Origin: Octopus vulgaris
Taxonomy: Eukaryota
Direction of reading: 5' to 3'
DNA: 64,000 nucleotides
Assembly: GCA_951406725.2 (NCBI GenBank)
Contig: OX597818.1
Coordinates: forward strand, 48,112,001-48,176,000
Shown: piece by piece, positions 12,701 to 14,963 of the stretch
How the letters are laid out: each line of letters begins with the position of its first letter
How positions within the stretch are numbered: position 1 is the stretch's first letter
Program-made: the position numbers and the translations under genes
Notes under the pieces: generated by a model
What the model saw: only the letters and a program-made list of their open reading frames with translations
The model's database searches: none
Told to the model about the DNA's origin: nothing

Positions 12701-14341
12701 CACTTAAAGCTCCACGAGGCTCCGGCAGGGAGTGGTGGCAACCCCTGTTGTTCTCTTTCACCCCAACTTTCTCTCACTCTTTCTTCCTTTTTCTTGAGTA
12801 ATGCTGCGATGGACTGGCGTCCTGTCCAGCTGGGGGGAATACATATGCCATAGAAACTGGGCCCATGAGCCTGGCTAGGCTTGAAAAGGGTGCATAAATA
12901 AAATAAAACCACTTATCTATGTTGAGTAGTACATTCTTTATCTGGGAAAAGCGTGGCACTTACAGTCATTAACCTATGGTGTTTCCTGGTATGAATAAGG
13001 GACTGTAATCTCACTTCTAGCACCATGGGTAAGTGTCTTCTACTATAGCCTTAGGCCAACCAAAGCTTTGTGAGTGGATTTGGTAGACGGAAACTGAAAG
13101 AAGCCATGTTGATCATGATAATGTTATTTTTATGTTGTGCAATGATCACGAGCAAGTTATTGAATATTTAAGAGGGATGGATTTCTTTTCTTTTTGAGTT
13201 AAAAGAAAAAAATTCAATTTAAAAAATGTTTCATCAAAATAATTCTCATCTCCAACTTTGAAAACATATCTCTGCAAAAGACATTTTAAAAAAATGTAAG
13301 GAAGCAAAATCTCAAGAATTGGAGTACTGAATCTTTGACAAAGACAATATACGCCATGGAAACTGGTTAGGCTTTAAAAGGGCGCAATGGCCCAGTGGTT
13401 AGGGCAGCGGACTCGCGGTCGGAAGATCGCTGTTTCGATTCGCAGACTGGGCGTTGTGTGTGTTTATTGAGCGAAAACACCTAAAGCTCCACAAGGCTCT
13501 GGCGACCCCTGTTGTACTCTTTCGTCCCAACTTTCTCTCAATCTCTCTTCCTGTTTCTTGAGTAATGCTGCGATGGATTGGCGTCCCGTCCAGCTGGGGG
13601 GGGGGGGGGGGGCACATACGCCACAGAAACCGGGAAACCGGGCCCACGAGCCTGGCTAGGCTTGAAAAGGGCGCATAAAAAAAAATAAATAAAACTTATT
13701 TTAAAGATGAAAGGCAAAGTCAACCCCGGTGGAATTTGAACTCAAGACGTAAAGTCGGAAGAAATGCCGTTAAGCTCCCCTTATTTTTTCCGGCACCATA
13801 GCGATTCTGGCAGTTTGTTATCCCTCGGGCAAAGGCAATATTAAAAGTTATAAGAAAATGTTGAAATATGGAGTTATCTCCCTTTACATTTTATTATTAG
13901 TACACAACGATTATAGTCGTCAATACAGTAATCCCTTGACTATCGCTGGTGTTACGTTCCAAAACCCCCGCGATTGGTGAAAATCCACGAAGTAGAAACA
14001 ATACTGTACTGTATATATATATATATATATATATATATATATATATATATATATGTATATATATGTATAAGGACACCGTGACGGTGTCGAGCCTTTCTGG
14101 TGACGTCGATGTTCGCCTGGGGCTAAATGCAACAGTAACACCCCCACCACCCTGCCCTGTCCCTAGCCATATTCAGATGGCTTTAGTCCCTTATGTTATC
14201 GAGCAGTTACTGTCTATATCTCTTTTAGAGAATTATTATTGCTTTCGAACAGATTTTCGAAATCAGCAAATGTATTTTGCTTGAAAATCTATATATGAAT
14301 ATCCTGCAGAGTGAGAGTTCGTCGAGGAAGCGGAAGCCTAC

Positions 14342-14387
14342 CACACGCCGACGATAGGCAATACACCTTGAAACCATGGTCCGTGTG
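14342..14387 (+). ncRNA. Minimal type-I hammerhead ribozyme motif, copy 1 (variant core CCGACGA)
   Basis: CACACG-CCGACGA-t-AGG(caataca)CCT-t-GAAA-C(CATG)G-TC-CGTGTG. Helix I is extended by GAAGCGGAAGCC/GGTTTCCGCTTC. Predicted cut after C14381. Confidence 0.75.
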
Positions 14388-14701
14388 TGGTTTCCGCTTC
14401 ATCGGGGAATTACCTCCCTTTGCAGGTTAAGGACACCGTGACGGTGTCGAGCCTTTCTGGTGACGTCGATGTTCGCCTGGGGCTAAATGCAACAGTAACA
14501 CCCCCACCACCCTGCCCCGTCCCTAGCCATATTCAGATGGCTTTAGTCCCTTATGTTATCGAGCAGTTACTGTCTATATCTCTTTTAGAGAATTTTTATT
14601 GCTTTCGAATAGATTTTCGAAATCAGCAAATGTATTTTGCTTGAAAATCTATATATGAATATCCTGCAGAGTGAGAGTTCGTCGAGGAAGCGGAAGCCTA
14701 C

Positions 14702-14747
14702 CACACGCCGACGATAGGCAATACACCTTGAAACCATGGTCCGTGTG
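14702..14747 (+). ncRNA. Minimal type-I hammerhead ribozyme motif, copy 2
   Basis: Identical to copy 1, exactly 360 bp downstream. Predicted cut after C14741. Confidence 0.75.
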
Positions 14748-14963
14748 TGGTTTCCGCTTCATCGGGGAATTACCTCCCTTTGCAGGTTAAGGACACCGTG
14801 ACGGTGTCGAGCCTTTCTGGTGACGTCGATGTTCGCCTGGGGCTAAATGCAACAGTAACACCCCCACCACCCTGCCCTGTCCCTAGCCATATTCAGATGG
14901 CTTTAGTCCCTTATGTTATCGAGCAGTTACTGTCTATATCTCTTTTAGAGAATTATTATTGCT

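Follow-up and report, generated by a model that had tools for sequence, protein, structure and literature searches.

A dispersed 360-bp tandem element with variant hammerhead motifs and Penelope-type insertion ends in the genome of Octopus vulgaris

A tandem array of 360-bp units lies within the window examined here—a 64,000-nt stretch of the Octopus vulgaris genome (assembly GCA_951406725.2, contig OX597818.1, forward-strand positions 48,112,001 to 48,176,000)—and raises the question of how such a repeat came to be inserted and what kind of template it was copied from. A preliminary description had counted about 2.5 near-identical units and proposed a candidate retrozyme, each full unit carrying a minimal hammerhead ribozyme. 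TRF returns the same array (14068–14963, period 360, 2.5 copies, 99% matches); units 1 and 2 are distinguished by three substitutions (14518, 14595, and 14610), and the partial third unit shows no differences from unit 1. The features of the locus are as follows, with the parts of motif 1 read from the sequence:

14012..14067, strand not applicable: left (TA)n target microsatellite (sequence and TRF)
14068..14963, + strand: single-armed insertion of 2.5 units (896 bp), 5′-truncated at unit position 1; its 3′ end is the long one (unit position 176)
14327..14400, + strand: hammerhead motif 1 with its helix I extension (U4C core, U10.1.U11.1, palindrome)
14327–14338/14389–14400, + strand: 12-bp stem beyond the 3x1 loop, motif 1
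14342–14347/14382–14387, + strand: helix I, motif 1
14348–14354, + strand: core CCGACGA (U4C), motif 1
14356–14358/14366–14368, + strand: helix II, motif 1
14370–14373, + strand: GAAA, motif 1
14373–14380, + strand: palindrome ACCATGGT, motif 1
last base 14381, + strand: GUC, motif 1
14381..14382, + strand: predicted cleavage site 1, after GUC (hammerhead consensus and sequence)
14382..14741, + strand: predicted 360-nt monomer or circle with three private substitutions, strongly self-paired in the predicted fold
14687..14760, + strand: hammerhead motif 2, identical to motif 1 and 360 bases downstream; predicted cleavage after 14741
14920..14963, + strand: 44-nt tail of the Penelope-like element (PLE) type, from unit position 132 (short 3′ end) to 176 (long 3′ end), kept in sister families
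14964..15560, strand not applicable: right (TA)n/(CA)n target microsatellite (sequence and TRF)
43632..44053, strand not applicable: older two-armed relative with the canonical core CTGATGA, the U.U/AGG-CCT helix II of family A, and the palindrome ACTCGAGT

All of the hammerhead parts named in the preliminary description (helices I–III, core, GAAA, palindrome, and GUC) lie where it had placed them, as does the 12-bp prolongation of helix I past the 3x1 internal loop; what it overlooked is a U.U mismatch at positions 10.1–11.1 (14355/14369), at the base of helix II. Measured against the hammerhead consensus, the window motif retains the core CUGANGA, GAAA, A15.1-U16.1, and H17 with the single exception of U4, which is C; the G10.1-C11.1 pair is replaced by the U.U mismatch, while family B, described below, has G-C. 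A strict descriptor (at least 5/6 helix I and 3/3 helix II pairs) finds only motifs 1 and 2 in the window, and folding stands above chance in both the array region (z = -4.98) and the monomer (z = -6.04). An Rfam search gave no hammerhead match at E values up to 10 in 12000–17000, where simple-repeat noise alone was returned, and the minimum-energy fold of a single copy is not a hammerhead; hence, the motif requires comparative support.

Such support comes from 12 motifs drawn from four families, in which 94.3% of the cells are paired and 9 of 15 pairs have changed on both sides, among them the 3-8 pair (CG 5, UA 5, UG 2) and the palindrome. None of 500 shuffles reaches the observed covariation and slid controls are 22%–54% paired, albeit the 12 motifs are related sequences, such that shuffle counts are not to be read as probabilities. 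Loop-III palindromes in the relatives read ACCATGGT, ACCTAGGT, ACCGGT, ACATGT, ACTCGAGT, ACTGCAGT, and ACCCGGGT, and non-palindromic single copies are present as well. Even within the A lineage, the palindrome (CATG/CTAG) and the 3-8 pair (CC..G/TT..A) covary. In the fold predicted for a two-copy transcript, a double-hammerhead frame is joined by an 8-bp palindrome helix; forcing the active core is computed to cost 4.8 kcal/mol as a dimer and 8.8 as a monomer, and C4 would permit a rival GCC/GGC hairpin that replaces helix II. Covariation and dimer fold together back the dimer-type minimal hammerhead that had been proposed, and we infer a genuine ribozyme that would be slow and dimer-dependent, with the low cleavage rate probably due to U4C combined with U10.1.U11.1. 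As far as the accessible part of PMC3088659 goes, U3-A8 is active, U10.1-U11.1 is the best tolerated mismatch, and U4C in a viroid has much lower activity in vitro and is still functional in vivo.

The preliminary description had allowed that the change of U4 to C might leave this copy slow or inactive. The idea of one crippled copy is not supported: a genome-wide count, which that description had itself suggested, finds the exact core region in 405 copies (0 for a reversed control) and the C3-U4 form in none, and C4 is fixed in amplifying subfamilies. To judge from these copies, U4C is family-wide and not decay. With the variable core positions left free, 1467 copies are recovered; a hand count of the first 100 listed gives CCGATGA 47, CCGACGA 36, TTGATAA 8, TTGATGA 7, and TTGACGA 2, with A8 accompanied by U3 only among these hundred. 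The genome thus holds a natural core series of TTGATAA, TTGATGA, CCGATGA, and CCGACGA, while the canonical CTGATGA occurs in the 43632–44053 homologue and in family C. The hammerhead-like motif of another PLE family reads CCGAAGA (L122:5305-5345), or CTGAAGA in L064.

The window array belongs to family A. Across the animal's own 2.8-Gb genome, a first look with the 360-bp unit gave 810 candidates, and the 40 that were scored yielded 202 matches, those listed being 94%–100% identical. Single-unit substitutions in the youngest subfamily affect 91 of 72,414 bases (0.13%). The unit is devoid of protein coding (the longest stop-free stretch in six frames of a trimer is 90 codons), and the same scan rules out an endless ORF on a 360-nt circle. 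The element is, in short, ORF-less, dispersed, and very young. Its sister families are laid out alike. Family B is about 79% identical to it, with 358–360-bp units, 226 anchor copies, and the core TTGACAA; family C is older, with the core CTGATGA and 258 copies; and family D is known from the single locus L127 (3930-4520), a tandem of about 360 bp with a TTGATAA core and an ACATGT palindrome. Unit length is approximately 360–390 nt in all four families, and the shared tail motif occurs in 530 copies outside family A. The relative at 43632–44053 appears, by its combination of a canonical core with a family-A helix II, to link families A and C. Two pairs of family B insertions (L035/L037 and L136/L138) have the same flanks about 50–60 kb apart, a segmental duplication. 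Assembled contigs of 390 nt from four sequencing runs wrap back 360 bases, a pattern that tandem DNA and circles yield equally and that was set aside as evidence of circles; the loose ends of these contigs led to family B. Elsewhere in the window, four tandem repeats (6641-7184, 180 x 3; 7714-8175, 61 x 7.5; 43062-43436, 186 x 2; and 37449-37686, 118 x 2) lack the hammerhead descriptor and are probably SINE-derived.

How the copies are inserted can be read from their ends. In 67 insertions from a sample that leans young, its loci having been picked by best score or intact core, the 3′ ends of 119 arms peak at unit positions 132 (46 arms) and 176 (46 arms). Fifty-two of the insertions consist of two arms head to head: a short end is paired with a long one in 44, an end is damaged in 8, and in none are the two ends of the same class. 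One end of each kind is likewise found in 15 of 16 two-armed insertions among 17 further loci of other subfamilies, bringing the combined figure to 59 of 68 with one arm per site and none with both arms on the same site. This strict pairing implies that both initiation sites are used within one event. (TA)4 or more directly abuts 115 of 150 standard ends, and no two of 84 loci have their flanks in common. Breaks at the 5′ side fall on the ribozyme cut site in 3 of 119 arms (2.3 expected) and are not enriched there. In the accessible parts of the literature, the tail of a PLE stretches from one start site of reverse transcription to a second, with extension of both target strands (PMC11167929), and tail, inverted truncated arm, and microsatellite target make up the PLE layout (PMC8557442, PMC3846280). 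The octopus insertions bear this signature: they sit in (TA)n targets, their arms meet head to head, and their 3′ ends fall at two fixed positions separated by 44 nt; the marks by which a non-autonomous PLE is recognised—a tail at one end, an inverted 5′-truncated arm, and an AT-rich target—are all present. What the preliminary description had missed is that the window array represents a single arm of an element that is dispersed and has ends of the Penelope type; in this copy, the long-site arm alone is present.

What was copied is recorded within the arms. A single arm may traverse the ribozyme site as many as 11 times with no indel, and none of 243 scored junctions carries an indel at the cut site, although badly altered junctions would escape the search pattern. 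Taken with the lack of ends at the ribozyme site, this indicates that the bond was intact or had been re-ligated when the enzyme copied across it. At least 12 haplotypes exist among insertions, yet unit pairs within an insertion are discordant in only 135 of 2800 cases (4.8%), against 28% in 200 permutations; the value falls to 1.8% without L091 and is 3.3% (37/1111) across arms. Among 74 young insertions, eight variants each occupy every piece of one insertion and of one only (for example, 58G in 6/6 pieces of L093), a number that drops to two under a stricter filter (at least three pieces, and no occurrence of the allele elsewhere, singletons included). L221 has 9+3 units with no substitutions, and in L222, of the same subfamily, 208C is found in each of the 8 pieces spanning that position. 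Since most insertions hold a single sequence version, a small RNA circle, traversed repeatedly, was likely their template.

New variants in arms of at least four units are single-unit in 27 of 32 cases, compared with 18.8 under stepwise growth (P ~0.001), the expectation being a coalescent stand-in and the singletons possibly including assembly errors. This count is the collapsed one, since an uncollapsed frequency count (41/46) over-counted clustered changes, and one damaged L098 unit and junction-near bases were left out. Such a preponderance of single-unit variants means that the arrays were, for the most part, long from the outset. A monomeric circle would explain the seamless passage, the one haplotype per insertion, and the single-unit mutations, all of which are indirect support. 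Homogeneity by itself would follow equally from homogeneous source arrays.

Several insertions are mosaic: L091 mixes haplotypes along 11 units (1993-6248), with switches that fit the predicted cut site, and L003, L015, L108, and L233 contain pieces of other haplotypes. Short tracts with older-subfamily alleles in the L094 junction, the + arm of L108, and the second unit of L233 suggest template switching or gene conversion between subfamilies. In L223 (1505-3257, - strand), 199A alternates with period two, as from a dimeric template or a 720-bp duplication.

The reading preferred here, at a probability of about 60%, is that of an animal retrozyme primed twice by a PLE enzyme on a monomeric circle. 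An array would be transcribed by read-through, and two adjacent motifs would pair via the palindrome, as in the predicted fold, and cut slowly after GUC. The 360-nt monomers—the retrozyme product delimited by cuts after 14381 and 14741 that had been proposed, and that is supported as a prediction—would be ligated into a circle by analogy with other animal retrozymes. Both strands of a nicked (TA)n target would then prime at two internal sites 44 nt apart, where a footprint is observed; the enzyme is likely a Penelope-like reverse transcriptase-endonuclease, rolling round the circle into the (TA)n site. The number of rounds would vary from one cDNA to the next, and the pair would be joined head to head, sometimes at unit hairpins, as the observed products suggest. 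Against this reading stand the core, which departs twice from the consensus and whose C4 favours the GCC/GGC hairpin, and, against a monomeric circle in particular, the mosaics, the period-two variant of L223, and the weakness of that core. The accessible parts of two studies also weigh on this side: ribozyme cleavage was dispensable for insertion by an anole PLE in vitro (PMC11167929), and 8 of 9 predicted Xenopus retrozyme dimers showed no cleavage (10.64898/2026.07.22.740005). Circle and uncut-multimer routes may both operate. More specifically, and more tentatively, the insertions could record a dimer of the Penelope enzyme that starts from both target strands at two fixed positions on one 360-nt circle and rolls round it, with a ribozyme tuned down by U4C and U.U such that circles or short multimers survive copying; we hold this fuller version slightly less probable than its negation. 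If true, these footprints would be direct evidence that the retrozyme cycle runs as proposed and would explain the origin of the PLE tail and inverted arm, and the element would offer a substrate for in vitro reconstitution.

The main rival—made so by the mosaics, the period-two variant, the weak core, and the cleavage dispensable in vitro—is PLE twin priming on uncut linear multimers from a long homogeneous source array, the ribozyme rarely cutting and U4C having spread because intact multimers template better. Uncut RNA was the main in vitro substrate in the accessible part of PMC11167929; mosaic arms exist; the longest arrays seen belong to C4 subfamilies; and no short tandem is seen in family C, with its canonical core, when the first 100 cores listed are considered, although family C is older and age confounds this contrast of array length. 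We nevertheless consider it unlikely, in that a separate long homogeneous master would be required for each of the at least 12 haplotypes and a further one for every whole-insertion private variant, 5′ truncation would shorten arrays with each cycle, and covariation of palindrome and 3-8 pair persists inside the A lineage.

Three other routes are considerably less probable. Arrays might have grown by unequal exchange after PLE-type insertion of one or two units, as in the satellite birth proposal of Li et al. 2026; a few variants common to some units only (L096 276C, L109 179T, L223 199A) are what such growth would leave, but the excess of single-unit variants, the near absence of mutations from some of the longest arrays (L221), and the short arms of older subfamilies make it improbable. 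Template jumps, as in R2, leave added or lost bases. That the enzyme jumped repeatedly from the 5′ end to the 3′ end of cut linear monomers, with no circle, is rendered a little less credible still by the indel-free junctions and the lack of a 5′-end pile-up at the cut site, despite all L091 haplotype switches fitting that site (a weak match made by eye, chance ~0.1). Least probable of all is the fold-back route put forward for rotifer PLEs in the accessible part of PMC3846280, in which self-priming gives rise to the inverted arm, possibly with antisense RNA as the template: some junctions do lie at hairpins of the unit, and L164 and L165 are among a few perfectly palindromic insertions, but the arms are mostly unequal, with either one longer (3918 versus 369; 93 versus 2174), and arm haplotypes differ in some insertions (L105, L108).

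The preferred reading, a PLE enzyme primed twice on a monomeric circle, calls for a helper. PLE protein matches are absent from the window, and the genome contains at least two young candidate families. One, which we take to be of the Neptune clade from its linker motifs, has intact 781-codon RT/GIY-YIG frames in 10 copies 96.5%–99.7% alike and ends in (TA)n. In its members (L111-L120; L114:244-5490), the RT/GIY-YIG frame is preceded by one of 479 codons that matches nothing in Pfam; they also carry a hammerhead-like motif reading TTGATAA and a tail of roughly 38 nt. The other, an abundant family (L238-L249; 2305 candidates), also ends in (TA)n and has a long pyrimidine-rich 3′ region with a TTGAAGA hammerhead-like motif. 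No DNA shared with the unit or its tail was found in 58 PLE loci (30+16+12) of 6136 GIY-YIG candidates, and unit and tail profiles showed no similarity to the Neptune-type, second young, and several older PLE families. The likeness of the Neptune tail (a CTCG/CGAG hairpin, then TTATTAT) and TTGATAA core to relatives of the element is post hoc and not significant; apparent PLE links in L122, L127, L206, and L219 are separate neighbouring insertions; and widely spaced family C pairs (L218-L220) contain no linked ORF.

The kind of element is already known, and the interest rests on its copy statistics and core-variant series rather than its type. PLE help and circle-templated tandem cDNA have been proposed for animal retrozymes (PMC7229834; 10.64898/2026.07.22.740005), and PLE copying of tandem cDNA from circular RNA likewise (PMC4209133, PMC7229834), in the accessible parts of these papers; the circle-copying step was not found demonstrated in the searchable literature. 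Li, Clavereau, and Pollet (2026; 10.64898/2026.07.22.740005), as far as their text is accessible, tie vertebrate retrozymes to pLTRs, call the mobilisation mechanism unresolved, and favour later, local tandem growth. Neither cephalopod retrozymes nor a haplotype test of the template were encountered in the literature searched, to which most subscription papers do not belong; octopus and cephalopod do not occur in the main text of PMC7229834, nor ribozyme and retrozyme in the octopus repeat annotation PMC13282606, in the portions available. This very young family allows mobilisation models to be separated by copy statistics: one-short/one-long ends, seamless passage of the ribozyme site, a single haplotype in each insertion, and a star-like pattern of mutations. 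The natural hammerhead core-variant series is offered for assay, and searches restricted to CUGANGA would miss actively spreading families.

The comparisons that follow draw on the accessible parts of the papers cited. The octopus element resembles animal non-LTR retrozymes (PMC7229834; 10.64898/2026.07.22.740005) in that its copies are dispersed and free of ORFs, its tandem units measure a few hundred bp with a single type I hammerhead in each, and its monomer is self-paired, and it displays the retrozyme sequence traits (150–450-bp tandem units, a type I hammerhead in each, dispersal) with a variant motif. It differs in that U4C and U10.1.U11.1 are fixed in the motif of its amplifying subfamilies and in its two-armed inverted insertions with a tail; Xenopus retrozymes have 21 PLE matches, whereas no pLTR homologue was found here in 58 PLE loci. 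Chlamys elements such as MRC1 (PMC8557442) are likewise ORF-less PLE dependants with multicopy head-to-tail insertions, but they share 3′ sequence with autonomous families and belong to a clade without canonical hammerheads; the octopus unit has a hammerhead, and those 58 loci yielded no sequence in common with it. Endonuclease-bearing PLEs (Poseidon of anole, PMC11167929; Neptune/Naiad, PMC8557442; PMC3846280) have the same two-site tail, inverted 5′-truncated arm, and AT-rich or (TA)n targets, with a dimer-type hammerhead upstream of the 3′ end (pLTRs, PMC4209133); their tail measures 30–40 nt and that of the octopus element 44 nt, and the latter has no ORF and a 360-nt unit repeated up to 11 times per arm. 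Finally, U3-A8, U4C, and U10.1-U11.1 are each natural among the variants of Perreault 2011 (PMC3088659), whereas the octopus genome combines U4C and U10.1.U11.1 in hundreds of copies.
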